From positions 250,976,001 through 251,040,000 of the forward strand of contig NC_091473.1 of assembly GCF_036971445.1 (NCBI RefSeq): 64,000 bases of DNA, read 5' to 3'. The notes beneath the pieces are model-generated. The model saw only the letters and a program-made list of their open reading frames with translations. It was not told the DNA's origin and searched no databases. A program made the translations under genes and the position numbers. The stretch comes from Narcine bancroftii (Eukaryota). Of this stretch, positions 2,718-61,250 are shown piece after piece (within the stretch, counting starts at the first letter, position 1; every line of letters starts with the position of its first letter).

Positions 2718-2836
2718 GAATCAACATTCTTTTCCATATCCTACTGTTCTCTCAGTGGTCTTGTCAGTTTTCTTCCTGCTATTCATCGCTGCCACCATTA
2801 CTTGTATCAAAATAAAATGGCAGAAGAAGAAAAATG
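2718..2836 (+). CDS. Receptor gene A, transmembrane exon (NQHSFPYPTVLSVVLSVFFLLFIAATITCIKIKWQKKKN)
   Basis: tctgcag acceptor, G|gtaagt donor; uncharged hydrophobic stretch of about 20 aa followed by a basic stop-transfer KIKWQKKK. Confidence 0.85.
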
Positions 2837-3324
2837 GTAAGTTCAGTTCAATGTCAACTTTGAGAGGTGAGCGTAAATTGTTATTTGAAATGTTTGTACT
2901 TTAATGAAGGGCCTTTTACCTCATGTAGAAACTCTCAATGGGTACTCAGCACTGGTTCAGCAAGAATTAGAAGGGGTATTCATATCAATTTGCCTTAGCT
3001 TTAGAAGGATGCAAAGATTCTGTAGGAGGATCCCAAAAGGTTTAATTGAATGTTTCCAGAGATGAAGGATTTTACTCATCAACTTAAACGTTCAAAGCCG
3101 TTGGTACCTTTGAGCTTCGATGGCTCAGGTAGGGTAGGTGGATGGTAACTGTTCTCCTCAAACAATCACTCATGGACCAGCTCTCCAAGAATGATGAAAT
3201 GAAACATGAAAGTCTGCAGATGCCGTAATTGTGTAGTTAAAAAAAAATGCTGGAGGTGCTCAGAAGGTCTCATAGAATCCATGTTTCGGGCCCTTCTTCA
3301 AGCTAATGTGCACAAAGTTACTGG

Positions 3325-3658
3325 TGTTACAAACCAGCAACCACAAAGAAGGCATATCACCCGGGTAAAGATGAACAATTACTTTATTAACAAAAAAATT
3401 CACCTTCAAAAGTTAATTCAAAATCCCCTCTTTTATAACAATGCCCACTGGTTACTATGCAAATCTCTATAACAGTGTAAAACTAATAAATTCCCCAGCC
3501 TAAATATAACTTACGTAATCAAAGTCTAAGCTACACTTCCAACCAGCTCACAGAAAAACTTAGACACAAAACACACAAGACTCACAAAACTTCGATCTCA
3601 ACCGAAGTAAAGATCATGAATAAAATTCAGTTTGTTAGGTAAATTGAAGCCAAAGATC

Positions 3659-3714
<56 letters not shown>

Positions 3715-4049
3715 GTCTTGTGTTGCTTGTAGAGAGAGGAACCGCTGGCTTGGTCTGGATCCTTCTGGCTGCCTTCGGAATATTCATCCATTTTGAAATG
3801 CCCAACATTCTAAACTGTCCTCCAGACCATGACTCATGCTCCGGGCCTTCTGCCACTCCACAGCACCACCCAGTGGTGGTTTATCATCCAAGTCCAGAAT
3901 TTTTTTTAGATTATTTTCTGCACATGCTCAGTCCATCTCCCACTCTCTCAGCAGTCCACCTTCACCTTGGCTCTCTAAGGCAAACTGTCACTTTTTAACA
4001 TAAAACCACACAACACATAGGCCAATATACAATACAGAACTCTGTAACT
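3325..4049 (-). mobile_element. Solo LTR (Gypsy-type) with internal (GA)n
   Basis: Termini tgttac...gtaact, 4-bp TSD ctgg (3321-3324, 4050-4053); splits an older repeat. Confidence 0.8.
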
Positions 4050-4209
4050 CTGGGAAAACTCAGCAGGTCTCGCACCATCTCAGCAAGTCTCTTCTCCCTT
4101 CTGGTCTTCAGTCTTAATCTGATACCTTCCTGATCTTTATTTATACCTTGAAGAAGGGCTTAGGGCCAAAACATCAGTAATGTATCTTTAACTCTTATGG
4201 ATTCCACAG

Positions 4210-7200
4210 TGAATATGGCCATTAGGTCTCTGGCACGGAGTCTGGTACTGCGGCTAAGAAGGGAAGGGAGGAGAAGAGGTGAGCTGTAGTGATAGGGGAT
4301 TCCATAGTTAGGAGAACAGACAAGAGGTTCTGTGGAAGAGATCGAGTATCCTGGATGGTACGTTGCCTCCCTGGTGCCAGAGTCTGAGATATCTCACATC
4401 GAGTTCACAGCATTCTCAGGAGGGAGGGTGAGCAACCAGATGTCATGGTCCATGTAGGTAAGAAGGGTAAGGATGTCCTGCAAGGAGAATTCAGGGAGTT
4501 AGGCACTAGGTTGAAGGACAGAACCTCCAATGTCGTGATCGCAGGATTGCCACCCGTGCCACGTGTGAGTAAGGTTAGAAATAGGAGGATAATGCAGTTT
4601 AACACGTGGCTATAGACATGGTGCAGGAGGGAGGGCTTCATGTTTCTAGATCATTGGGCTTTCTTCCAGGGAAGGTGGGTCCTGTTATGATGTGATGATA
4701 TGCATCTGAACTGGAAGGGGACTTGTATCCTTCTGGGAAGATTTGCAAGGGCTGCTCCAGTGGGTTTAAATTAGATTTGCAGGGGGAGGGGAACCAGAGT
4801 GCCAGAGCAGTTAGAGGAGTAGGGGAAGGAAAAGAGGATGTGAAAATTTCATGCACCATTAGAAATTAATTGGTTTAATGTGGTGGAAATGTTCGCAGAT
4901 GCATCTATTTCAATGCAAGGAGTGTTGTAGGAAAGGCAGACAAGCTTAGAGCATGGATTAGCATGTGGAATTATGACATTGTGGCCATTAGTGAAACTTG
5001 GTTCCAAGAAGGGCAGGACTGGCAGATCAATAATCTGGGCTTCTGTTGTTTTAAACATAATAGAATAGGGGGGGAGAAATGAAAGGGGGAGGAGTGGCAT
5101 TGCTCATCAGAGAAAAAAAATCACAGCTGTGCTCAGGTAGGACAGAGCAGAGTGCTCATCTACTGAGGCTATATAGGTGGAGCTGAGGAATGGGAAAGGT
5201 GTGATCACATTCATGGGGTTATATTATAGACCGCCCAATAGTCAGTGAGAATTGGAGGAGCAAATCTGTGGAGAGATAGCAGTCAACAGCAGGAAATAAG
5301 TTTGTGAAGGTCAGAGATTTTAACTTTCTACATATTGACTGGGACTCCCATACTGTAAAAGGGCTGGATGGCTTGGAGTTTGTTAAATGTGCTCAGGAAA
5401 ATTTTCTAAATCGATATATAGAGGTACCAACTAGAGAGAGCACAATACTGGATCTCCTGTTAGGGAACGAGACAGGTAACAGAAGTATGTTTAAAGGAAC
5501 ATTTTGTGTCCAGTGATCAGTTTCAAGTTAATTATGGAGAAGGATAGGTCTGAGCCTTAGATTGAGGTTCTAAATTGGAGAAAGACCAATTTTGAGGAAA
5601 TGTGAAAGGATCTAGAATGTGTGGATTGGGATAAATTGTTTTCGGGCAAGGATGTGCAAAGTAATGGAGAACCTTCAAAAGTGAAATTTTGAGAGTTCAG
5701 AGTTTGTCTGTTCCTGTCAAGATCAAAGGTAAGGTTAGAAGGCACAGGGAATTTTGGTTTTCGAGGGATATTGGGGATCTGGTTCAAAAGAAGAGATGTG
5801 TATAACAGGTAGAGGCAATGTGGAGCAAATTAGGTTCTTGAGGAGTATAAAAAATGCAAGTTAAACCTAAAGAAAGAAATCAGGAAGACTAAAAGAAGAT
5901 ATGAGGTTGCTTTGGAAACAATGCGAAGGAAAATCCTACGGGTTTTCTAGGCATATTAACAGCAAAATGATAATAAGGGACAAAATGGGTCCCCTTGAAG
6001 ATCAGAGTGGTCAGCTTCGTATGGAGCCAAAAGAGATGGGGGAGGATTTAAATGTTTTTTCCATCAGTATTCACTCAGGAAACAGGCACAGATCATGGGA
6101 AATAAGCATGGAAACTAAACAGATTAAAGAGGAGGAAGTGCTGGCTGTCTTAAAGCAAATATAGGTGGATAAATCCCCAGAGATAGTTCCTCAGACCTTG
6201 AGGGAGGCTAGTGTGGAAATTGAAGGGACTCTGGCAGAAATATTTAAAATGTCCTTAGCCACGGGTGAGGTGCCAGAGGATTGGAGGGTAGCTCATGTTG
6301 TACCATTGTTTAAAAAAGGCTCTAAAAGTAAACCAGGAAATTATAAGCCGGTGAGCCTGATGTCAGTAGGGTAAATTATTGGAGGGTGTTCTGAGAGATT
6401 GGACAGCCAAGGGATGATTAAGAATAGTCAGCAGGGCTTTGTGTGTCATCGGTCGTGTTTAACAAATCTTATAGGGTTTTTCAAGAAGATTACCAAGAAA
6501 GTAGATGAAGGAAAGACTGTGGATGTTATCTATATGGACTTTAGTAAGGTCTTTGACAAGGTCCCACATGGGAGGCTAGATCAGAAGGTTCAGACACTAG
6601 GTATCCATGGAGATGTTGTAAACTGGATTAGAAATTGGCTGAATGGGAGAAGACAGAGTGGTAGTGGATGGTTGCTTCTCAGACTGGAGGCCTGTGATCA
6701 GTGGTCAGGGATTGGTGCTGGGACCATTGTTGTTTGTGGTCTATATCAATGATCTGGATGATAACGTGGGAAATTGGATCAGCAAATTTGCTGATGACAC
6801 TAAGATTGGAGACGTTGTGGACAGCGAGGAAGGGTTTCAATGCTTGCAGAGGGATCTGGGCCAACTGGAAAAATGGGACAGAAAATGGCAGATGAAATGT
6901 AAATGTAGACAAGTGTGAGGTGTCTGCATTTTGGAAAGACAAACCATGGGTGGTCATACACAGTAAATGGTCGGGTACTGAGGAGTGTAGAGGAACAAAG
7001 GGATCTGGGAGTACAGATACATAATTCCATGAAAGTGGCGTCACAGGTAGACAGGGTTGTAAAGAAAGCTTTTGGCATCTTGGCCTTCATAAATCAAAGT
7101 ATTGAGTATAGGAGTTGGGATGTTATGGTGAGGTTGTATAAAACATTGGTGAGCCCAAATTTAGAGTATTATATGCAGTTCTGGTCGCCAAACTACAGGA

Positions 7201-7695
7201 AGGATATCAGTAAGATTGAGAGAGTGCAGATAAGATTTACTAGGATGTTGACGGGTCTTCAGGAGTTGAGTTACAGGGAAAGATTAAGCAGGTTAGGACT
7301 TTATTCCTTGGAGCATAGAAGAATGAGGGGAGATTTGATAGAGGTTTACAAAATTAAGAGGTGTATAGACAGAGTAAATGTGAGTAGGCTCTTTCTATTT
7401 AGATTAGGAGAGATAAATACAAGAGATCATGGGTTTAGGGTGAATGGAGAAAGGTTTAAGGGGAACATTAGGGGGAACTTTTTCCTCTCAGAGAGTGGTG
7501 GGAGTGTGGAATGAGTTGACATCTAACATGGTAAATGTGTGCTCACACTTAAATTACAAAAGTAAACTGGATAGATACCTGGATGGGAGAGGTCTGAGGG
7601 GTTATGGAATGGGTGCAGGTCAGTGGGACTAGCAGTATAATGTTTTCGGCACAGACTAGAAGGGCTGAACATACTGTAATGTTTTAAGGGTCTAA
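4210..7695 (+). mobile_element. Near full-length decayed CR1 LINE (SGNH-esterase ORF1, APE endonuclease, RT) in a gene A intron
   Basis: VVIGDSIVR, DFNF..IDW, VPEDWRVAHVVPLFKKG, YMDFSKVFDKVPH, KFADDTK; many frameshifts and stops. Confidence 0.92.
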
Positions 7696-7696
7696 T

Positions 7697-8070
7697 AAGG
7701 GGAGATTTGATAGAGGGAGGTATTTAAAATTATGAGGGGGATAGACAGAGTAAATGTATATAGTCTTTTTCCACTGAAGATAGGTGAGATACATGGGTTT
7801 AGGGTGAAAGGGAAAAGTTTAAGGAGAACATGAGGGGCAACTGCTTCACAGAGAGGGCAGTGGGAGTGTGGAATGAGCTGCCAGCTGAAGTGGTGAATGT
7901 GGGCTCAATTTTAAGTTTTAATAAGAATTTGGTCAGGTACATGGATGGGAGAGGTATGGCGGGCTATGGACTAGGTACAGGCCAGTGGGACTAAGCAAAC
8001 CAAAAATGGTTCAGTACTGACTAGAAGGGCTGAAAGGGCTCATTTGTGTGCTGTAGTGTTCTCTGGTTCT
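7697..8070 (+). mobile_element. Second CR1 3'-end fragment directly behind the first
   Basis: Diverged repeat of the 7325-7690 sequence (aggggagatttgatagagg...gtgggacta). Confidence 0.8.
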
Positions 8071-9552
8071 GCTTCTATGGATGCCGCGAGATCGGCTGAG
8101 TTCCTTCAGCATTTCTGTGTTTTTACAAAGAACGATGAAATCGGATCTAGAATACAAAGTCTTATTATTAAAAGCAACAGCAGGAGAAGGAGGAGTATTA
8201 CAAGCTGATGTGATTTTAAACACACCATTGGAAATTTTCTCTTCAAAAATTTAAAATCTGAGCAAAATCCAAAGTGCCAGAAAAATAATCTGCTGGAGGA
8301 CCTCAGTAGATCAAGCATCATCACTGGGGGAAACAGAACGGTTTAGATTTGGAACCTTTCATCAAAACTGAAACATCAACAGTTCTTTTTCTCTCCCACT
8401 GATGCTGCTCCTCCAACCAGATTGTTTGCTTGCTCCAGATTCCAGTGTCTGCAGCCTCTGGTGTGCCACACAACGTTTATAAGTCTCTGGTTTCACAGAG
8501 GCATTTCTCTAATGCAGTAAGCTCACGGTCAGACTGGAATGTTATAAAGCAGGGGGGAAGGCGAGTCACCAGGATAGGACCCTTTAGACAGGAGAGATGG
8601 GGTTTGTTTTCCCTAAAACATAGGTTATAAAAGATAGAAATGATTGAGGTACAGAGCGGGTTGAGTGCAGGAGAACCTTTCTCCATATCGGAGGTAGGTA
8701 AAACATGGTCATGGATTGGAGATAAATGGTATGAGATTTAGAGAGGATTTGAGAGGAACCTTCCTCACCCAGAGAGCGTCTGAGGGAGTGGTGCAAACAG
8801 TCACTGATAACATTTAAGACATGTTTCGACAAGCACTTGAATCACCTCCTGATGAGCAAGGCGTGTTTCCAAAGCGAATGAATGTGAAAGAATTTGAGTC
8901 AGAACCCAGAAATTTTGCAAACAAAATTGACCAAATTTGACACTGACAAGGAAGTCCAAAACCCAATCAGGGTAGCTCTGTGACTCAGCTCCAGCAAGTC
9001 GGGTTTGATGGAGACCTCCAGTGCTGCCTGTGTGGAATTTGCTGGAGACCAAGTAAATGTCCTCTGATTTTTGTCCTATTTCCCATGGACCAATGGGCTG
9101 GTTGTTGATGACGAGACGGATGCATCCTGAGGACGGTGACAGCAAATCAAATGGAATTAGCATAAATGAGAGTGAATGGGCAATTGATGGCCAGTGCAGT
9201 CTTAGTGGGCCAAATGGTCTCCTTTCATGCTGACCAACTCTATAGATGGTGCCTCTGCAGCCCCTGCATCCAGAACCCAATGAGCTTTTGCAAGAGATTT
9301 AACAGTGCTGCAATAGATAAACTTGTGAATCAAATATGATATACAGATGACCCTCTTATGACCTTTCATGTGACAGAAGTTTGTCTTTCCAGAATTTGTG
9401 TGGGGTGGGGGGTGGGGGGGAAAGGGGTAAAATTTATTTATTTTCCTACGTTTCTTGACGTTTGTTGATAACACAGCTTCTAGGACCACTCCCACCCCAT
9501 AATGCATGGGTCATCTGCAATGTAGTGGAACCTTTTTTAAAAAGGATTTTAC

Positions 9553-9783
9553 ATTTAGACATATAGCACGGTAACAGACCATTTTGGCCCACGAGTCTGC
9601 GCTGCCAAATTAACCTACACCCCCAATACATTTCGAACAGTGGGAGGAAACCAGAGCTCCCCAGGGAAACCCCACACAGACAGGGGGAGAACGTAGAAAC
9701 TCCTTACAGACAGTGCGGGATTGGAACACCGATCACTAGCACTGTAAAGGTATTGCGCTAACCGCTACATCAACCGTGCCACC
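9553..9783 (-). mobile_element. HE1-like SINE
   Basis: Same family as 46808-47055; another minus copy at about 37405-37634 and a plus copy at about 45010-45205. Confidence 0.75.
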
Positions 9784-9973
9784 CTTGTGAATATGTCATG
9801 AGGTGCTACATAAATACAACTTCTCACCAGGGTTTCAGATGAAAAATAAATTTTCTTGAATGTTTTAATATTTCATAAATATGATGCCAGTGAAAACAAC
9901 TCAACAGAAACCTTCAGGTGTTCGGGCATAATGATGTCCACATTTAATCACTAACAATCATTATATTTTCCAG

Positions 9974-10020
9974 ACACAAATAGAAAGAGGAATGAGGAAA
10001 ATCTATCAGGAAGCTCCACG
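9974..10020 (+). CDS. Receptor gene A, first cytoplasmic exon (DTNRKRNEENLSGSST)
   Basis: ttttccag acceptor, ACG|gtaagg donor; 47 nt, phase 1 to 0, linking the TM exon and the ITIM exon in frame. Confidence 0.75.
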
Positions 10021-10429
10021 GTAAGGCCATGGGAAAGATATGGGGGAAGTGTAGGAAACCCTGCTTGGAGGCATTCACGGAGGGTCACATGATCAACTGA
10101 TCACATTATATGCCAATTATATGATACATTGATCATAAGACAGGAATTCATCATACACTGCCTGTCCTTGACCTCTTCGCAGCCTCAGTGAGGTCATATT
10201 CAAACGAAGAACCAAGCCTTCACTTGGATAGCTCACAACAGTGGCAAGAACATTGAATATGCCCAAATCTGATGACCTACACCCCGCTCATGTATCTTTC
10301 CCACTCCAAATGGCTCTCTCCCCCTAGTTCACCATTTCCCATTTCCATCTTCTATAATCCACATACCTGTCTACGTGGGTTACTCCTTCCCCTGGCCTAC
10401 TCTCCGGAACCTAATAAAAACAACGTAGG

Positions 10430-12060
10430 ATCCATAAGTAATTGAATCTTTAACACCTTCTCTAAAAGTTCCTTACGTCGTGTCCAAAAAACCTTAACTT
10501 TCTCACAGAACAAAGTGAAATGAATAAACGTACTGACATCTTTAGAACAATGAAAGCCTAAATCTGAAGAAATCAAATTATATCTTTAATTTCTGAGGAG
10601 TTAAATATAATTGATGTAAAAAATTATAATGAATGAATCCATACGTAACATTAATAATCTTCGTCATACTATCCTTACATATAGATCTCCAATCATCTTG
10701 CTCCATTACAATACCCAGATCACTTCCACATTTTAATCTCGATTTATGGATATCTAACTTAGGCATCTTATTTTGCAATTATTTATACATTTCAGAAATA
10801 ATTTCTTTAATACCTTCCGTAAATAAAATTTCAAAATTAGACTTTCTTGGTAATCGTAAAGTACAGGTACACCCAAAATCATCCAATAATAAGGCTTTAA
10901 CTTGATAATAAGCAAAAAGAGTATTATTTGGAATTTCATATTTCTCCTTCATATAAAATAACCAGATTCATTATCATCTTGAACAGCTTTAATTCCTTTT
11001 TGATACCCTATTTTCAAAAACTGATTAATAAAGGTGAAGGGAAAAAGTTTATTTTGATATAAAGGTGTCTTAACCAAAATGTTCCCTTGTGTACCTACCT
11101 CATCATTCAACCTATTCCACAATTCAAATAAATGTCTCAAAATAGGTGGATTTTTATTAACAATTAATAACTTAATTTTCCATTTATAAATAAACTGGGT
11201 AATATCCTTCACACCAATAATATCTAACTCAATATTAGCCCACTTGGGTGGATGTTCCAAATCAAACATTCTATTAATATACCTCAATTGTGCTGCTTTT
11301 TTAATAATTTTGAAAATTCGGAAGTTGCAAACTTCCTAATTCATATTTCCAAGTAAACTTTAGTAAAGATACCCTAACCATTTTACCTCCCCATAAAAAA
11401 ACTTCCTAATTATAGAATTGAAATCTTTAAAAAAAAACCTTTGAGGAAACTTACAGATTGAAATAACTATTGAATCCTAGGAAAAACATTCATCCTGATA
11501 CAATTGACTCTACCTATTAGAGGTAAATCCTTCCATCTATTTAAGTCCTCTGATTTTATGAAATAAAAGTAAGTAATTTAACTTGTATAATTGATCTAAA
11601 TCTTTATTAATTTTAATAACTAAATATTTGATCTGATTTGACCATTTAAATTGAGCTATTTTCCCACATTGAGTATAATCAGCTGCAATTAAAGGCAGCT
11701 CTTATCCCAACCTGATACTTGACCATAATGTTTCAATCTTTTCTGCAAAAAAAATACAACGAAGTTTGTGGTTCTGTTAAATAAATTAAAACATTATCAG
11801 CAAACAAACTAATTTTAAATTCCTCAGAATTAACTTTAATACCTTTAATATTACTGTCTTGTCTTAATAATTGTGCTAAAGATTCAATAGTTAATACAAA
11901 CAATGCAGAGCATCCTTGTCTCGTAGATCTCTCTAATTAAAATGCTGATAATACTTGGCCATTTATCACTACTCTAGCAGAAGGATTTTTATTTAGAGAT
12001 TTAATCCAACTAATAAAATTTGGTCCGAATTTAAATTTTTCCAATGCTTTAAATTTAAAA
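10430..12060 (-). mobile_element. L1-clade ORF2 C-terminal fragment
   Basis: Minus frames with RSTRQGC, LFADNVL, IHYNFLHQLYLTPQKL. Confidence 0.8.
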
Positions 12061-12367
12061 AAAATCTTTTCTCCCACATACCACCTTAAGCAATCCCTTA
12101 CTATCACAGAGCACCTATGGCAATAGGGAATACTTAGAGTGGTACGTAAGTGGAAAGAAAAAGGTTGAGTACCACTGCTTTAAGGCTTCTCTTCCATTCC
12201 ACATACTTAAAGAAGCCCTTACCATCTGTTTTTATATTGTGCTGGTTTTCCCTCTTAGTTTATTTTTTCCTCTCTCTTTGCAAACGTTTATGGCATCTTC
12301 TATTGATTTCTAAATTCGTCCGTTCCTTGGATTCATTACTAATGGTGCTTCTCACTTCTCTTCAAAG

Positions 12368-12523
12368 GAGATCCCAATAGTCTATACCACTATAAACTTC
12401 TGCCCCAAAGATAATGTGGAAAATACCTACATGAATCTTCAGAGCCTGAATGTACAAGAAGCCAGGAGTCAAAATGACTCGGAAAATGTCACGTATTCAG
12501 CAGTGGCTCACAAAAGCCAATAA
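12368..12523 (+). CDS. Receptor gene A (probably CD300/pIgR-like inhibitory receptor), terminal exon with two ITIMs
   Basis: Pyrimidine tract plus ttcaaag acceptor; reads EIPIVYTTINFCPKDNVENTYMNLQSLNVQEARSQNDSENVTYSAVAHKSQ*; ITIMs IVYTTI (12377-12394) and VTYSAV (12488-12505), plus YMNL. Confidence 0.85.
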   Translation, partial: EIPIVYTTINFCPKDNVENTYMNLQSLNVQEARSQNDSENVTYSAVAHKSQ

Positions 12524-31875: not shown

Positions 31876-31915
31876 ATGAAGTTAATTGCTCTACTGTTGC
31901 TCACTGTCATTTCAA
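31876..31915 (+). CDS. Receptor gene B, signal peptide exon (MKLIALLLLTVIS)
   Basis: acaATG with A at -3, basic then hydrophobic leader, phase 1 donor A|gtaaga in frame with the Ig1 exon. Confidence 0.8.
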
Positions 31916-34505: not shown

Positions 34506-34814
34506 ATACAGTGGCCTTTCACTCGATGGTGATCAGAGCTGAAGTAGGAGAAACAATGACGGTAGAATGTCCTCACACAGAGAAATATGGACGTGCAGGC
34601 TGGTGTAAAACATATCTCCCAGAAATGTGCAAAGTGGTGGTGAGCACCAATGGAGAAGACCACAATGGAAGAACATCAATCAGAAGGAAAAAAGGGTCTG
34701 TTTTTGTAACCATATTTGAAGTTGAGACAATCGACTCGGGGATATATTGGTGTGGACTCAGACAGGCAGATTTTATCCACATTTCAGATACCATCATGCT
34801 GGAAGTTTTCACAG
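34506..34814 (+). CDS. Receptor gene B, Ig-V domain 1, CD300/pIgR/TREM type
   Basis: caacag acceptor, G|gtagga donor, phase 1-1; VECP...WCKTYLPEMC (extra Cx7C pair)...GRTSI...DSGIYWCG. Confidence 0.92.
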
Positions 34815-35142
34815 GTAGGAAGTTTTCTGAAGACTATAGGACATAATATGCTTGAGGCAGTGACACAAGGCCTGGTGTCAAATTAGGAGCTCATTACACG
34901 AGCTTCGCCTCTGCAGATAATATTGCATCACCTACTGTACTCAAGAACAGGTTGACTTGCCTAGACGGCAGGTTTATCAGCATCTGGGTGTCAGTCGGAT
35001 CGAGATCCTATGTCAGGACTCTGAGGCTGCGTTATCCTATGGGGCCCGCGTTATCCTGCAGTTGGCTTCTCCATCGTCAGACATTTTGCCACTTCAGTTT
35101 CTTGTTGTTTCTAACCTCGTGACTTTTCTCATCCACAAGCAG

Positions 35143-35436
35143 ATTCATGGCAGCCAAACAAAACCACAGTCAATGGTGAAATGGGAAAAGCCATCAATAT
35201 ACATTGCCAGTACAAGAAGCAACATGCAAGCTACAAGAAATTCCTGTGTAAAGTAGCTTCCGTGAACAGATGTCGCATCATAGCTAGCTCCAGTCCGAGT
35301 AAAAACAGAAAGTATGATTATAACCTGGTGGTCACCTTGCATAGAATTGATGAAGGAGATGAAGGAGAGTATTGGTGTGGAGCCACAGACACTGTTCACT
35401 TTGAGATTGGACAGGTTAAAATCCTAGAGGTCGAAG
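35143..35436 (+). CDS. Receptor gene B, Ig-V domain 2, CD300/pIgR type
   Basis: aagcag acceptor, G|gtatga donor, phase 1-1; IHCQY...YKKFLCKVASVNRC (Cx7C)...DEGEYWCG. Confidence 0.92.
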
Positions 35437-38595: not shown

Positions 38596-38632
38596 GAACT
38601 TCGAGTCAAAACATAACCAACATCAATAAAAG
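38596..38632 (+). CDS. Receptor gene B, short stalk exon (GTSSQNITNINK)
   Basis: cccag acceptor after a T-rich tract, AG|gtgaga donor; phase 1 to 2 like the gene A stalk exon; NIT sequon. Confidence 0.65.
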
Positions 38633-39364
38633 GTGAGAATATGACTGTGATCTTCAAACTCAATTATTGACGAACTGAAGTCATGATTAGATGGTTCCGC
38701 TGTTCTAATGGGACAATATATTGTATGTGCCATTGTACAAGACGATCTGAAAATTTTACTTTTAAAAAAAAAAATCAGGGTCATCCCACACAGAGTCTAA
38801 AATTCTTACCTTGATGACAGTCTTCCCGCCAGCTCCAAGGCAATCTCGTTCCCCCATTTAGTCACTTGGAAAGTCTCAGCACTCCTCCGTGGGGTCCGTC
38901 CGCCCACTCCACCCGCTCTCAACACTGTACAGCCTTTAAACGGCCTGTTAATGACAGTGATTGGTTTTAAAATATCCAAATAAAATTTAAATGATCAATT
39001 GTTATTAAAATGTTGTAATTGGCTTATAACAGCATTCACTGGGCAGCGATAATAGCCATATTTTGTGGATGGGGGGGGGGGGGGGGGGAGTCGTCTTCTT
39101 CAAAGTTTCTCATTCAAAATATGCATTTTAGGTGAAAATTCCAGGGTCTTCCAATACAGAGTTGCCCTATACAACGGCATATAGGGTATGTGTCCTTAAT
39201 GTCACACTCCTCTATTTAATCCTCCCTTCAAACTTAACTTGAGGAAGGGCTCAAGCCCAAAATGTCAGTCATATATCTTTATCTCGTACGGATGCTGAGA
39301 AACTAGCCGTTCCTCCAGCTTTTCTGTGTTTTTACACTTATTTAATCTTCCCATTTATTTAATC

Positions 39365-41092: not shown

Positions 41093-41206
41093 TAGCAGCG
41101 TGCCAATAGGGTACTTCCTGCTTCCGGCTGTGTTGGTAATACTGCTCATAATCCTGATACCCACCCTTGTCAAGAAATGGAGACAGATGTGCAATATTTC
41201 ACAAAC
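41093..41206 (+). CDS. Receptor gene B, transmembrane exon (SSVPIGYFLLPAVLVILLIILIPTLVKKWRQMCNISQ)
   Basis: tttatag acceptor, gtaagt donor; phase 2 start matches the stalk exon; uncharged TM followed by KKWR. Confidence 0.85.
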
Positions 41207-42011
41207 GTAAGTAGATCAAAATATTTCTTCCGCTATTAGAATAATAACAAAACAGCAACCATTTTGTGTGATAGCACAATAAATATATTGTCACACAAAG
41301 ATGGGTAGTGGGGCAGGTTGCGGGAAGGAAGCAGAGAGACTTAGGTAGATTAGGAGAATGGGCAAAGTAGTGCCAAATGGAATAAAATATTGGAGAGTGT
41401 ACAGTCATGCATGTTAGTTTCCAACTGTTGGAACGATGTCAATAGAGAAATGCAAAACTGGCAATGGCAGACAAATAATCACTGGAGGAAATCCTCATAT
41501 GGGTAGAAATGGTTAGTCAACCTTTTCTGATCCTGGTCCCTATATCAATGTTAGAGGGAAGGGGGTAATATTTCAATTATTCCTACCCTTTGTACCATTC
41601 AGAACATACTATCCTACAGCATCTCAGTGTGGAGCAGCAATGGTCTTGTATCGGACTGTACAGCACTTCAGTGGACAGTGAAAACTGCCCAGCTGATTAT
41701 TGGCATGTAATTGCACACCACTGAGACATCCATCAGGAACACTGTCTGGGCAGGGTGAAGAGTATCATCAAGGATGAATCTCACCCTAACTATGGACTTT
41801 CTACTCTCCTTCCATCCAATAGGCATTACAGGAGCCTTTGGTTTCAAACCAGCAGGTTTAAGAAGAGCTCCCCCCCAACCCGAGGCTGTGACCCTGCTGA
41901 ACCTTAAGTCACAGTGCTGAATGGTGCTGCACTCGCATTGCACTGTCAGTACTTTTATAATTGTTTGCTTGCTGAATGCATTTGTTTTTATTCACACATA
42001 GTTATTTGTAT

Positions 42012-42327
42012 TGTGAGAGATTATATCATATTTTATATTGTGTATAGATATGCTTTTGAAGGAGATAGATTGTGGGGGTTTAGTGTAGGTTACAAACAAA
42101 CACTTCACAAAACAGATCTCATTTAAAATACCAGTGCTCTGCACAAACCAGACAGTCCAGGCTCCGCATGCCTTTGCAAAAACTTTGAAGGATGCCTATC
42201 GAGACTTCACAAGTAGGTGTTAATTGGACATGCTGTGGAGTAATAGATTATTGTTTTGGAAAGCAACAAATGAATGGACTCAGAAGATTGCTTTTCTAAG
42301 AGGGTCATGTGGCTTTCTCTCAGAGAA

Positions 42328-42380
<53 letters not shown>

Positions 42381-42980
42381 TGCTTCCTGCAGCATGGCAA
42401 GCTGGAATCTTTTTTAAATACCATTTTGAAGACAGATTGTGAGTTCTGAGTTCAGCCTGTTGAAAACCCTTGTGGTCCATAGAAGAGGAAATGGGTGGCT
42501 CGAGTATTTCACCTGAAATAAGGGAAACAAAAAGGAGCTCTGTGGTGACCTGCAGAAAAGGTGATCAATTGGAAAACCCTGATGGGGCAAGTTTCTTTGG
42601 TAAGACATTGAAGTGGCTGATCGGAGGGAATCAGTGTGCGTCCAACGAGCAATCTCTCTGAAACCAAAGAGAACCTTCCTGAGCGGTAACCACTTACTTT
42701 TAAACACCAGCACTTGGTGAAAATTCAGAGAAGTTAAATTCTGTGCACAGCATAAGAATTGCCTGATATTGGTGAACATGGAGGAGTGAGAAGTGAGATT
42801 GGACTGAACTTATACACATTACATACATGTGCTCTTAGAATGAGAAGGGGGTTAAGTTGATAGTAATAAGTCAAATTTTGATCCCATTTTTATGTTTAAA
42901 GAAAATTAAAAGTAATTTGTGATTAAGTAACCATTTGTCTTGGTGAATTTTTATTGCTGCTGGGTTTTGGGGCCCGAGCA
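42012..42980 (+). mobile_element. LTR-family copy with (GA)n
   Basis: Reverse-complement homologue of 30108-31148 (ttggtgaattt.tattgctgctgggttttgggg). Confidence 0.75.
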
Positions 42981-45600
42981 CCATTTTTAAAAAATTTCCA
43001 AATTGGTTGCTCGTTTGTATCTGATTGCTTTCATACTTAACTTGGCTCAAAGACAATAAAGTTGAATCTAATCTAATAAAGGGTTAGGGTTAGGGACTGA
43101 GCATTTCCATTCATGGATGCTGTCTGGCCTATTGAGTTTCTCCAGAAATTCTTTACCTGCAGAGGAAAGGATGTCATTAAACTGGAAAGGATTTGGAAAA
43201 AATTTGCAAAGATATGATTGAGCTACAAAAATAGTTGGTTAGGTTGGGATGTTTCTCCTTGAACCATAGGAGGCTAATTGGTGGACTGAAAAAGGACATA
43301 AATTAGGCAAATAGTCCTCATCTTTTCCACAGGGAAGGCAAGTCTAAAACTAGATGACGTGGATTTAAAGTTGGGAGAGATTTGAAAGGGAAATTGGCAG
43401 CCTGAACAGAGTAAATAAGCTCGCTGATTGGAAACAGCCTTGGGTTGAACTGAGACCATGACAGACACCATATAAAATGCTCAATAGTCAAGAAAGTAGG
43501 CCATTTAGTTTTGACCAATAAAGCAGCCTTTCCTTTCTTGGTGAAAAGTTCTGGTCCGAAACTTTGGCAGTTTTTTTTCTCCCCCTGATGCTGCTCAATC
43601 CACTGAGTTCCTCTCGCGGATTAGTTATTTTTTGGCTCCAGATTTCAGCATCTGCAGTCTCTTGTGCATCTTCAGGTTTTCCTTCCCATTCCGTGGAGTG
43701 GAAGAGGAATCACAGTAATAATCCCCAAAAGGGACGTTTTATGCGTGATCCTGAGGCATCTCCTAACATCAGCCACTGCTCACAGAACGTTCCAGAATTC
43801 AATGCAGCAGAAAGAATTACAGGCATTCAAACTTGCCCTCATGCTCAGTGTTGTCAATAAGGGATGGGAAAAGCTCGTATGAGCCTCTGCATTATACAGT
43901 TGTTCATTTTTGCCCTCACCCCCAGTGAAGTTAGAAACCTATTGCTGGCATTGAGGTACAGCACAGCTGCCTGACTGTCAATCAACTGCTTCTTTCATCT
44001 GGGTTAAATTAGTCAAGATTCGTCGATTATTCAACTGGAGACGTTGAAGACCCTTTCTGTACCCAATATAGCCCTGCCAGTGGATGACACTTCTAAGAAG
44101 GAACCCTGCCAATCTTTCCCTGCACTTGGACATAGTAGCTGTTGGTGAAACCAGCCAGCTCTTTCCCCACCCCTTTAATCACAGTCCCTCAGCATGGATC
44201 TTGCCTTGGGAACCAGGGAGAGGTGAAGTCAAATTTATTATCATTTGATTGTATAAGTACAACCTGATGAACCAGCGTTCTCCAGCCCTCAGTGCAAAAC
44301 ACGCAGACAAATAATACATATGCAGGACAAGTATTTCATCTATATAAATAAATATTGTTTTGTAAATATTAGAGTCTCGGAGGGTCAGTGTGAGTGGTCG
44401 TTCTGCATTCTCACTGCCTGTGAGAAGAAGCTGTTCCTCAGCCTGGTGGTGTTGGCTCTGATCCTCCTGCATCTCTTCCCTGATTGGGAGATGCTGTGTG
44501 CAGGGTGGAAGGGGTCCTCAATGATTTTGTGAACCCTGATGATCCCGGTAGACTGCATCAATGGTGGGGGGGTTTCACATAACGGTGGCCGGTAGTCTAG
44601 CCCACTTCACTGTTGCGCCTTCTGCCAAATGGGATGTTGGGTGTCCACAATAGGTCACTAGTTCAGCGAACTCCAAGGAACATGGTGCTCTCCACCCGCT
44701 CAACTACTGAGTTGAAGCATGATGGTCGGAGGCAACCGATTCATAGATCTGCATCCCACATGGGTCCCTGTCCAACCCCTCCACCCTGTCATCCTTCTCT
44801 TCTCTACATTCCCATCAAGATAGAAGATTTTGTTCAAAATGTTGACCACTGATGGTGTTAGAACCACTGCCTCATGGGTAGTTTATAATCACAGCATTTG
44901 CAGTCTCCTGCACCTCCCCAACTCCTATATCTCCTCCCTTTATATACTTTCTATCGCCCTTTAAATACTTTTTAATCGCCCTTTCCCACTTAAGAATCAA
45001 CAGGACCACACCAGCAATCAGGGGACCGGGGTTCGAATCCCGTGCTGGAAGGAGTTTGCTCTCTCTCCCTGTGTCTGCATGTCTTTTCCCTGGGGCTCCA
45101 GTTTCCTCCCACCGTTCGAAACCTACCAGGGGTTGTAGGTCAATGGGGTGTAATTGGGTGGCACGGGCTCATGGGCCAGAAGGGCCTTTTACCTTGCAGC
45201 ATGTTTAAATTAATGTAATAAATTAAATACCGTGCAGCATGTTTAAATTAAAGCCTGAAAGACTGACTGAGCATTTCTCTCCACGGATACTACCTGGACT
45301 ACATCTCCTCAGGATTCCGGCAACTCCCTCATCTTTTGTTCAAACCCCAGTGGTGGGTCTAGGACTCGTGGCTACTGGAATCAGCCCTCTGTGGTTTAAC
45401 GCTCAAAATGAAGTGGTTTTCTGTTGGTGAGACAGGCAAGTAGCAAGTGGTTGCAGCCTCCTGTAGGAAGTTTGGCTCAGTCTGTGAGTACAAAGTGAGA
45501 GAGTGGAACTTGGGATAAAAGTTGAAGCTGCAGACAAGGGGGGAAAGGAATAGAAGACCGTGCTTCTGGAACGTGACATGGTGTTTTTTTTCCTCCCTAG

Positions 45601-45638
45601 TTAATAACGAAATGTGAGGAACATGTCTTCCGACCAAG
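45601..45638 (+). other. Receptor gene B, small post-TM exon beginning with in-frame TAA TAA (relic cytoplasmic exon)
   Basis: Strong acceptor tttttttcctccctag and donor AAG|gtaaga; joined to the TM exon it gives AC+T (Thr) then TAA at 45602-45604. Confidence 0.6.
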
Positions 45639-45769
45639 GTAAGAATGCAGTGAGTGTGAAATTGCACATTGTTCCTCTACTTAATCCTTTAAAACAATGG
45701 AAAAATTACAAATATTGTTTAGTTCATTTACCTCAGTTGACAATACAATTTGGAAAACATGCTTCTCAG

Positions 45770-46650
45770 ACCAGAAGCCTGTGACTAGTGGCTTTTCACA
45801 GGAATCAGTGCTGGGACTATTGTTGTTTGTGGTCTATATCAATGATCTGGAATGATAATGTGGGAAAATGGATTGGCGTTTGTTGATGACACTAAGATTG
45901 GAGGCGTTGTGGACAGCGGGGAAGGCTTTCAAATCTTGCAGAGGGATTTGGACCAACTGGATCAATGAGCTAGAAAGTGGCAGAAGGAATTTAATGCAGA
46001 AAAGTGTGAGATGTTGCATTTTGGAAGAACAAACCAAGGTAGGACATACACAGTAAATGGTCGGGCACTGAGAAGTGCGGAGGAACAAAGGGATCTGGCG
46101 ATACAGATACATAATTCCCTGAAAGTGGCGTCACAGATAGACAGGTTTGTAAAGAAAGCTTTTGGCATCTTGGTCTTCATAAATCAAAATATTGAATACA
46201 GGAGTTAGGATGTAATGGTGAGGTTGTACAAGACATTGGAGAGGCCAAATTTGGAGTATTGTGTGCAGCTTTGGTCGCTAAACTACAGGAGGAAGAATAT
46301 CAGTAAAATTGAAAGAGTGCAGAGAAGATTTACTAGGATGTTGATGGGTCTTCAGTTGACTTACAGGGAAATGAGAGCATAGAAGAATGAGGGGAGATTT
46401 GATAGAAATATACAACATTATAAGGGGTATAGACAAGTAAATGTGAGTAGGCTCTTTCCACTTAGGAGAGATAAATGCAAGAGGACACAGCTTTGAAGGA
46501 AAGGTTTAAGGAGAACATTAGGGGAAACGTTTTCACTCAGAGAGTGGTGGAGGTGTGGAATAAGCTGACATCTGACGTGGTAAATGCGGACTCACTCTTA
46601 AGTTATAAAAATAAACTGGATAGGCACATGGATGGGAGAGGTCTGGATGG
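45770..46650 (+). mobile_element. CR1 3' fragment
   Basis: Closely matches 6670-7595 (LHFGRTNQGRTYTVNGRALRSAEEQRDL). Confidence 0.88.
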
Positions 46651-46807
46651 GGGATCACACTGACCTAAAACAATATCCTGCGAGGGTATGTTTGATTTCC
46701 TATTTAATTTCCTTATCCTATTGATCCAAAAGATGGAAAACACTTCTCTGCAGGCCCCTCAGTTCTGGATCAACCTCACTGTGGCCTAGATTAAAGCTTT
46801 GTCCGAA

Positions 46808-47055
46808 GGGCAGCACAATTAGCTTGGCGATTAGCGCAACCCCTTCACAGCACCAGTGATCGGGACCGGGGTTCGATTCCCACACTCTGAAAGGAGTTTG
46901 TACCTTCTACCGGTGTTTGCATGGGTTTTCCCCAGAGGCTCCAGTTTCCTCCCACCGTTCGAAATGTACTGGGGGTTATAGCTTCATTGGGTGTAAATTG
47001 GGTGACACGGACTCGTGGCCCGAAATTGCCTGTTACCGTGCTGTACGTCTAAATT
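46808..47055 (+). mobile_element. Full-length HE1-like tRNA-derived SINE
   Basis: gggcagcac 5' end, GGTTCGATTCC B-box, core ggtttt...gctccagtttcctccca, tail cctgttaccgtgctgta..tctaaa. Confidence 0.8.
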
Positions 47056-47627
47056 TAAATTTTTAATTTAATTTCCACGCATTAGGGAGGCTGACCTACA
47101 TTCATTCAGCTGTCTGCTAAGAAGCAAACATGGCATTGCCTGGGTCAAGTCCAATATGTCCTTTTGATTCGGGTACTATCATCTCCTTTGCAGTCTGACC
47201 CGTTGACCATTTTCTTTTTGACCTTCTCTTTCTCTCTCTCATATTTTAACAGTATTTACCTTGTCATTTAAATATTGAATTGACTTGTTTTAGTTGGAGA
47301 TGTCCCGAAGAATCAATTGCATATCCTGATTTCTGCTTAAATACTTCCCATTCTCCACCTCTTCCCCATCCCTCTCCATTCAGAGCAAACCCCCTCCCCC
47401 CTCCCCCTCCTCCACTGCCTGCTGGTGTGCCTTCCCTCCCTGACCTACCATTTAGCTCCTACCTGTGGGACCATGCTCCTCCTCATGCCCCTCCCCTCCC
47501 CCATTTTATTCAGGAGTTTTGCTCATACCTTAATGAAAAGCTCAGACCTGAATTGTTGGTGATACACCTTTATCTTTGCTGTTTGACCTGCTGAGTTTCT
47601 CCAGCGTTGAGTTTTCACATTTTACAG

Positions 47628-48040
47628 ATTCCACTGTGACCAACTGCCTTCCTCACCGAAGCAGGTCTGGGAACTTCCTCCAGTCTGAAGGATATGAAAG
47701 AACAAAATGGAGACATCAAGGTCCATTCATCAGAATCACAGGAACATTTTACCAGAAAAGGGCTCAGGCCCGAATCGTCAACAGCTTTGCATCGATGTTG
47801 TGTGACCTGCCATGTTTCTCCAGCACTTTGGCGCGTTACACTTGCTCCCAAGCATCTGAAGACTCCTGTCACTCCCCTGTCGTTCACATCCCAGTGCAAT
47901 TGCCTTCTGCTGTTCTAAACAAAGGTGCTCCCCTACTTTCGAAGGTCCTGCATACGGTTTTTTGAAGTTATGATGGTACAATAACAAGACTGTTGTTATT
48001 TACTTTCATGTAATACATTAAATTAAGTTCATCTCATGCA
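47628..48040 (+). other. Possible terminal untranslated exon of gene B
   Basis: ttttacag acceptor and ATTAAA at 48017-48022; weak because the acceptor abuts a repeat tail and a repeat fragment lies inside. Confidence 0.3.
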
Positions 48041-48123: not shown

Positions 48124-49820
48124 GAAGGGACTGATACTGTGCTGAGGGGAGAGAGCGGGGCAGTGGGATCAGTGTGGGGACTGACATGAGGCTGTGGGGA
48201 GAGTGGGGCAGTGGGATCAGTGAGGGGACTGAGACTGAGCTGTGGGGAGAGAGCGGGGCAGTGTGATCAGTGTGGGGACTGACATGAGGCTGTGGGGAGA
48301 GTGGGGCAGTGGGATCAGTGAGGGGACTGAGACTGGGCTGTGGGGAGAGAGTGGGGCAGTGTGATCAGTGTGGGGACTGACATGAGGCTGTGGGGAGAGT
48401 GGGGCAGTGGGATCAGTGAGGGGACTGAGACTGGGCTGTGGGGAGAGAGTGGGGCAGTGGAATCAGTGAGGGGACTGAGACTGGGCTGTGGGGAGAGAGC
48501 GGGGCAGTGGGATCAGTGAGGGAACTGAGACTGGGCTCTGGGGAGAGAGTGGGGCAGTGGGATCAGTGAAGGGACTGAGACTGGGCTGTGGGGAGAGAGC
48601 GGGGCAGTGGGATCAGTGAAGGGACTGAGACTGGGCTGTGGGGAGAGAGCGGGGCAGTGGGATCAGTGAGGGAACTGAGACTGGGCTCTGGGGAGAGAGT
48701 GGGGCAGTGGGATCAGTGAAGGGACTGAGACTGGGCTCTGGGGAGAGAGCGGGGCAGTGGGATCAGTGTGGGGACTGAGACTGGGCTGTGGGGAGAGAGC
48801 GGGGCAGTGGGATCAGTGTGGGGACTGAGACTGGGCTGTGGGGAGAGAGCGGGGCAGTGGGATCAGTGTGGGGACTGAGACTGGGCTGTGGGGAGAGAGC
48901 GGGGCAGTGGGATCAGTGAGGGAACTGAGACTGGGCTCTGGGGAGAGAGTGGGGCAGTGGGATCAGTGAAGGGACTGAGACTGGGCTCTGGGGAGAGAGC
49001 GGGGCAGTGGGATCAGTGTGGGGACTGAGACTGGGCTGTGGGGAGAGAGCGGGGCAGTGGGATCAGTGTGGGGACTGAGACAGGGCTGTGGGGAGAGAGC
49101 GGGGCAGTGGGATCAGTGTGGGGACTGAGACTGGGCTGTGGGGAGAGAGCGGGGCAGTGGGATCAGTGTGGGGACTGAGACTGGGCTGTGGGGAGAGAGG
49201 GGGGCAGTGTGATCAGTGTGGGGACTGACATGAGGCTGTGGGGAGAGTGGGGCAGTGGGATCAGTGAGGGGACTGAGACTGGGCTGTGGGGAGAGAGGGG
49301 GGCAGTGTGATCAGTGTGGGGACTGACATGAGGCTGTGGGGAGAGTGGGGCAGTGGGATCAGTGAGGGGACTGAGACTGGGCTGTGGGGAGAGAGGGGGG
49401 CAGTGGAATCAGTGAGGGGACTGAGACTGGGCTGTGGGGAGAGAGTGGGGAAGTGGGATCAGTGAGGGAACTGAGACTGGGCTCTGGGGAGAGAGTGGGG
49501 CAGTGGGATCAGTGAAGGGACTGAGACTGGGCTGTGGGGAGAGAGCGGGGCAGTGGGATCAGTGTGGGGACTGAGACTGGGCTGTGGGGAGAGAGCGGGG
49601 CAGTGGGATCAGTGTGGGGACTGAGACTGGGCTGTGGGGAGAGAGTGGGGCAGTGTGATCAGTGTGGGGACTGAGACTGGGCTGTGGGGAGAGAGCGGGG
49701 CAGTGGGATCAGTGTGGGGACTGAGACTGGGCTGTGGGGAGAGAGCGGGGCAGTGGGATCAGTGTGGGGACTGAGACTGGGCTGTGGGGAGAGAGCGGGG
49801 CAGTGGGATCAGTGTGGGGA
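48124..49820 (+). repeat. G-rich minisatellite, 50-bp unit, about 34 copies
   Basis: Unit gggagagagcggggcagtgggatcagtgtggggactgagactgggctgtg with 48-49-bp variants. Confidence 0.97.

Positions 49821-60980: not shown

Positions 60981-61250
<270 letters not shown>

Follow-up and report, generated by a model that had tools for sequence, protein, structure and literature searches.

A pIgR-like receptor gene of the electric ray Narcine bancroftii with a putatively lost inhibitory tail

Gene B is a receptor gene in a 64-kb window of the genome (3.3 Gb) of the electric ray Narcine bancroftii, contig NC_091473.1, contig positions 250976001–251040000; coordinates below are window positions. The gene encodes two immunoglobulin (Ig) V domains, a transmembrane (TM) segment and a very short cytoplasmic tail, and it is read here, with moderate confidence, as an inhibitory receptor that was disarmed and retained as a non-signalling ligand binder. 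The ancestral receptor would have recruited SHP-type phosphatases through two to three immunoreceptor tyrosine-based inhibitory motifs (ITIMs), a pathway that is established and that is extended here to the two-V pIgR-like family. In the electric-ray lineage the tail would have been lost by insertion of a repeat into the first motif (ITIM1), by loss of 2 nt at the end of the TM exon, or by both. Under present splicing the protein would end after about 12 cytoplasmic residues or gain short non-homologous tails. Selection would then have kept the ectodomain and the anchor, and the product would bind ligand at the surface without passing on a signal, likely as a ligand sink, an adhesion molecule or a pathogen decoy. 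Loss of tails is already known from paired-receptor clusters, and the surprise to a specialist is modest. If the reading is right, gene B is a clean and dated case of an immune receptor that has lost its output and kept its input, with dead ITIM exons that are still legible and a repeat within ITIM1 that sets a minimum age for the loss.

Architecture and family identity of gene B

The first Ig exon of gene B matches a RefSeq protein of N. bancroftii labelled "polymeric immunoglobulin receptor-like", which has five isoforms; these are protein records (XP predictions). The coding exons are as follows.

31876..31915, + strand: signal-peptide exon, phase-1 donor, exact mapping of RefSeq isoforms
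34506..34814, + strand: Ig V domain 1 exon, Cys35-96 and extra pair Cys47-55, Pfam V-set E 1e-8
35140..35436, + strand: Ig V domain 2 exon, tandem acceptor at 35143, 5–6 aa shorter than in other rays, structure model without D strand
38596..38632, + strand: stalk exon, 37 nt, from RefSeq isoform mapping
41093..41206, + strand: TM exon, tandem acceptor at 41096, uncharged TM, phase-2 end with donor GTAAGT

All eight Ig cysteines (8/8) are retained. The extra C-C' disulfide pair of pIgR/CD300-like V-set receptors is present in both domains (Cys47/55 and Cys153/161) and is invariant across relatives. The AlphaFold model has a mean pLDDT (predicted local distance difference test) of 85, and the signal exon together with a predicted helix at residues 234–265 gives a type I membrane topology. 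The ectodomain is 62.5% identical to that of sawfish, as against at most 38% to the cluster neighbours, and the ectodomain tree places gene B within a batoid clade with support of 99/100. The best candidates scored for a second copy of gene B in the Narcine assembly, which may be incomplete, did not exceed 38% identity. Genome-wide, no second intact tail of the gene B type was found, and a weak second match (E 0.15) is another cluster gene. By sequence, then, gene B represents an old pIgR-like family with two V domains in the electric ray, where it is single-copy.

Gene B belongs to neither signalling class. Receptors that activate through DAP12 or FcR-gamma carry a charged TM residue; the 21-aa TM of gene B contains no Lys, Arg, Asp or Glu. 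Inhibitory receptors carry in-frame cytoplasmic ITIMs; the 12-aa tail has no Tyr, and behind it only relics of ITIMs are found, two with the Tyr replaced and one split by a repeat. These properties of TM and tail had been described in the original prediction for read-through of the TM exon and for splicing to 45601, and they hold on both routes, as does the absence of an ITIM. To our knowledge, CD300LG likewise has neither an ITIM nor a TM charge. A hidden activating TM exon was also sought: seven queries with an Arg-Trp TM reached best scores of 33–39 in 35437–60900, no better than on the minus strand, while the positive control scored 68–194. The sole genome match to these queries is a receptor gene upstream of gene B. 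A short open stretch bounded by AG and GT at about 39132–39185, between the stalk and TM exons, was considered as a candidate exon; it occurs in no RefSeq isoform, its phases do not fit, and it is probably a chance feature.

By sequence and fold the best solved relatives of gene B are mammalian and teleost pIgR ectodomains (E 1e-27, about 20% identity). Polymeric Ig is bound by a loop in domain 1 of pIgR. This loop, as defined in mouse and human, is not conserved in the gene B alignment, and the 12-aa tail takes the place of the long basolateral-sorting tail of true pIgR. Binding of IgM may be envisaged for gene B, with the distant similarity to pIgR as its sole basis. In the human genome IL10 and PIGR are linked, and otopetrin genes are neighbours of the CD300 locus. 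One IL10-family match lies on the contig of gene B, 4 Mb away, and the otopetrin genes are on another contig.

The ancestral tail, its relics and the present 3' endings

Relatives were classified by TM and tail type in 29 proteins from 18 species of cartilaginous fishes, all of them gene models compared at the protein level, with [SIVLT]xYxx[ILV] as the ITIM-type pattern. Two partial chimaera proteins (P0144, P0148), a near-duplicate stingray protein (P0159) and all non-chondrichthyan matches were left out, and longer isoforms replaced three cluster representatives. A neutral TM followed by a tail of 73–103 aa (about 85 aa) with two to three ITIM-type motifs is found in 15 of the 29 proteins, from 14 species, that is, 14 of the 17 species besides Narcine. 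Seven proteins from six species have an Arg-Trp TM and no ITIM-type tail, three (gene B, Leucoraja P0011 and Heterodontus P0160) combine a neutral TM with a short tail, and four have an unclear TM or an apparent frameshift. An earlier suggestion that gene B once had a longer tail is supported by these orthologue models and by the relics below. The two-V "pIgR-like/CMRF35-like" receptors of sawfish, skates, stingrays, sharks and chimaera (P0006, P0170, P0167, P0018, P0180) share with gene B the two V domains, the neutral TM and the layout of the tail exons. Gene B differs from them in that its ITIM tail is broken, the D strand of its second Ig domain (Ig2) is lost, and no twin with an Arg-Trp TM was found in the genome.

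The remains of this tail lie behind the TM exon, as listed here.

45601..45638, + strand: relic first tail exon, 38 nt, splice sites intact, frame NNEM*GTCLPTK with a TGA, single-copy DNA
47294..47324, + strand: relic terminal exon, 5' piece, from the ancestral acceptor to the Tyr codon of ITIM1; 2 nt short; 4/11 identities to sawfish, weak alone
47351..47619, + strand: repeat inserted in ITIM1, about 0.13–0.17 substitutions per site on its own branch
47624..47753, + strand: relic terminal exon, 3' piece, 28/45 identities to sawfish; frameshifted, with a net loss of 5 nt; Ser in place of Tyr2, His in place of Tyr3
47757..47864, + strand: second repeat fragment, occupying the site where the last ITIM ended and the ancestral stop lay

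Searched against the whole genome, the sawfish tail has its best and sole clear match at 47673–47753 (E 6e-4, 74%), 6.5 kb behind the TM exon of gene B. Frameshift-aware scores of the relic tail are 88–103 and do not exceed 45 anywhere else in the window. The ITIM1 repeat is flanked on either side by a degenerate duplication, as read from the sequence. Both the length of the 45601 exon (38 nt) and its phases (1 to 0) agree with what the sawfish protein predicts, and the NNEM*GTCLPTK of this exon corresponds to NNKIPETPATTK. With the sawfish query it is top-ranked among the 492 AG-38-GT placements of the window and also among the 28 of the relevant interval. Evidence for homology to the ancestral tail exon is modest on sequence and persuasive when position is added. 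The tail phases of the neighbouring gene A (1, then 0), read directly in DNA, match those expected for the ancestral tail of gene B. The TM exon of gene B ends 38 nt past the start of the last Val codon, compared with 40 nt deduced for four relatives, which suggests that the exon is 2 nt short of an ancestral phase-1 end and that this change cut the tail off. The ending RESK of the Leucoraja model, against RENG in Amblyraja, would also fit a phase-1 TM donor.

The frame RNVRNMSSDQ of the 45601 exon, which had been put forward as a possible relic of the longer tail, does not stand: its mean score against six batoid orthologue exons is -8.2, compared with +5.8 for NNEM*GTCLPTK, and against the sawfish tail the scores are 2 and 16. 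The open phase-0 frame of the same exon (LITKCEEHVFRP) was rejected as well, with a score of -10.3 and no annotated phase-0 donor. An unannotated splice from the TM donor (41206) to 47294 would return the first relic Tyr in frame, with the tail end IAYPDFCLNT*. The frame is regained since 42 nt in all are missing, 38 from the skipped exon and 2 from each of the two losses; such restoration has a one-in-three chance of arising. A long GC-rich array of tandem units, each about 40 nt, lies behind the relic terminal exon, at about 48130–49820.

Two further features concern the present 3' endings.

41207..41386, + strand: read-through stop 41208–41210 with AATAAA signals at 41278 and 41381, poly(A) use presumed
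41823..41907, + strand: repeat-derived alternative exon of isoforms X1–X3, adding 27 aa that include HYRSL, inside a repeat at about 41591–42012

Read-through of the TM exon gives ACG TAA and the protein end KKWRQMCNISQT, while splicing to 45601 gives AC+T TAA TAA and likewise KKWRQMCNISQT. The original prediction, that both routes yield the same ending NISQT*, is thus correct for the two routes it named. It is not a full account of the 3' end, in that acceptors at 41823 and 47628 are annotated too. Three of the five RefSeq isoforms splice to 41823, one (X4) uses 47628 with its stop at 47686–47688, and one, with two accessions, ends in NISQT and fits either read-through or the 45601 route. A further exon, the case named beforehand as one that would count against the decoy proposal, does occur in the annotation, but the ancestral tail is not restored by it. 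The shared ending is a weaker coincidence than it appears because AC+N always encodes Thr and TAA always follows when a phase-2 GTAA donor is read through. The contingent event is the stop at 45602, and 23 of 445 AG sites (5%) in 41300–47290 would yield one. The first stop of the 45601 route ends 34 nt ahead of the donor at 45638, as had been stated, and the escape from nonsense-mediated decay (NMD) proposed from it is consistent with the exon that follows, which is homologous to the stop-bearing exon of orthologues. Both short-tail transcripts would likely escape NMD because the read-through is followed by AATAAA signals, 70 and 170 nt downstream, and because of this homology.

The repeat-derived 41823 exon may instead be a new working tail, in which T-H-Y-R-S-L would serve either for endocytosis, as a Yxx-hydrophobic signal, or as a weak ITSM-like motif. 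The use of the exon by three isoforms and the fit of its motif to [SIVLT]xYxx[ILV] speak for this possibility. However, RefSeq isoform numbers track length and not abundance, one such motif per 27 aa is easily a chance event, the tail is found in no orthologue, and the exon lies entirely within a repeat with hundreds of candidates (998, of which 40 were scored; the 39 other copies are 81–85% identical). The possibility is therefore considered unlikely. Equally improbable is a broader proposal, namely that the electric-ray lineage disarmed an inhibitory receptor which is conserved from chimaeras to rays, that the protein stayed at the surface as a partnerless decoy, and that an exon from a transposon became its new endocytic tail; if true, one single-copy gene would have exchanged inhibitory signalling for the clearance of ligand or pathogens.

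An assembly error or a rare allele could also account for the truncation, given that a single assembly was available and that the Leucoraja and Heterodontus models also contain nothing beyond the TM exon, which may be an artefact of annotation. This explanation is highly improbable in view of the many independent lesions, which include two old repeat insertions and a TGA, and of the RefSeq isoforms, which use the same phase-2 donor.

Constraint on the ectodomain after tail loss

In a comparison of 7 copies, the ITIM1 repeat has accumulated 0.13–0.17 substitutions per site along its own branch. In simulations with substitutions only (indels ignored), a neutral coding sequence of 797 nt kept its start, frame and splice sites over this divergence in 0.09–0.3% of runs, and in 1.1% at 0.10. 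The 199 nt of relic tail contain 2–4 frameshifts, which corresponds to 8–16 expected in the coding exons; none is found upstream of the end of the TM exon. Identity of the gene B ectodomain to four shark outgroups is 46.0–46.8%, within the 41–52.5% of other rays. The signal, Ig, stalk and TM exons appear to have outlived the tail under selection because they are open and evolving no faster than in relatives; this indicates constraint after tail loss and is not evidence of constraint today. The five RefSeq isoforms, with their tandem-acceptor variants, are also counted in favor of retention.

Several observations weigh against retention as a non-signalling ligand binder. The age of the ITIM1 repeat is rough, its sequence being pyrimidine-rich and the copies best hits. 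The 45601 exon is only third among placements with a batoid profile and second with an all-species profile. The Narcine end branch was flagged as long (0.55), with a root-to-tip length that is still not above that of skates or stingrays. The C-to-F segment of Ig2 has 46 aa, compared with 51–52 in 11 other ray proteins (an in-frame loss of 5–6 aa), and the D strand is absent from the structure model and present in a skate control; its predicted loss possibly reflects relaxed constraint. Transcripts and splice usage are predicted by RefSeq XP models; among the 4 runs of 1 study that were listed, none was of RNA. In addition, a classical paired-receptor decoy requires a look-alike signalling partner. 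Among the best candidates scored in the assembly the nearest ectodomain is only 38% identical, which argues against a decoy of this kind.

The same deletion in Ig2 would also fit a gene in late decay, its ectodomain kept for a while after the tail died, the protein now near-functionless and the splice routes unconstrained 3' noise. The four unrelated 3' endings, one of them repeat-derived, a TM and stalk that diverge from relatives, and the lack of a partner or relic of the Arg-Trp type near gene B also point in this direction. Human KIR2DL4 offers a precedent: in the accessible text of PMC5085992, a one-base loss at the same gene position, in the polymorphic 9A allele with its small deletion in a TM-region exon, truncates the cytoplasmic tail and abolishes surface expression. 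Unlike in that allele, the downstream exons of gene B have decayed over a long time. Against late decay, five coding exons have stayed open across about 0.15 substitutions per site and the outgroup distance is not raised; recent release from constraint is still compatible with both. Late decay, the main competing explanation, is accordingly possible but doubtful, and retention as a ligand binder is preferred.

Known systems, side observations on relatives and neighbouring genes

In the accessible part of a preprint (PMC13278318), turtle CEACAM1-like genes are described with a predicted loss of the ITIM exon via TM-exon read-through; a decoy role was proposed and expression is unproven. The likeness to gene B is that an inhibitory receptor was made tailless at the TM exon. 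The turtle genes differ, as that text presents them, in being duplicates that have an intact CEACAM1 next to them and binding domains nearly identical to those of CEACAM1, whereas gene B is the sole copy of its subfamily. The MDIRs of clearnose skate and the PIGRL genes of zebrafish form a multigene CD300/TREM/pIgR-like family, as described second-hand in the accessible text of PMC3031540 and PMC9321927. The MDIRs include activating and inhibitory forms in a cartilaginous fish, and gene B is likened to them by description only, as the protein searches for relatives yielded no MDIR sequence. No paper on gene B or its family in rays was found in a literature search that lacked most subscription papers, including the primary MDIR work. 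The results also draw attention to an ITIM/Arg-TM receptor family of cartilaginous fishes that seems not to have been studied and in which a natural tail knockout could help to define the ligand.

The ectodomain tree joins ITIM and Arg-Trp forms of one species. In Mobula birostris (P0172/P0176) and Hypanus sabinus (P0167/P0168), models of the ITIM type and of the Arg-Trp-TM type have identical or near-identical ectodomains, diverge at the stalk or TM exon junction and are labelled isoforms in the source. They are either homogenised paired genes or one gene that splices between inhibitory and activating ends. The Leucoraja P0011 and Heterodontus P0160 models end directly past the TM exon, through annotation gaps or independent tail losses.

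One other receptor gene of the cluster reaches into the window.

2718..12523, + strand: gene A, with TM exon 2718–2836, small tail exon 9974–10020 and terminal exon 12368–12523 with an intact three-Tyr tail

No Ig exons of gene A were found within the window. Gene A has its stalk sequence in common with receptor P0164, which lies upstream (contig 250.92–250.97 Mb) and carries Arg and Lys in its TM; the two also share Ig exons that are in tandem and nearly identical. Judged by these sequences, the two form a classic paired-receptor set beside gene B. A tailless gene B might modulate signalling by lateral pairing with gene A or with the Arg/Lys-TM receptor, given that both kinds of receptor share its cluster and that mammalian CD300 members, in the accessible text of PMC5648872, form homo- and heterodimers. 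The ectodomains are merely 30–38% alike, however, and such pairing is regarded as quite unlikely. Another cluster gene, near contig position 250845446 (L012:1500-1700), has an intact three-Tyr terminal exon. On the minus strand, an adenosylhomocysteinase-like gene with its last exon at 60981–61140 lies tail to tail with gene B and marks the cluster boundary.

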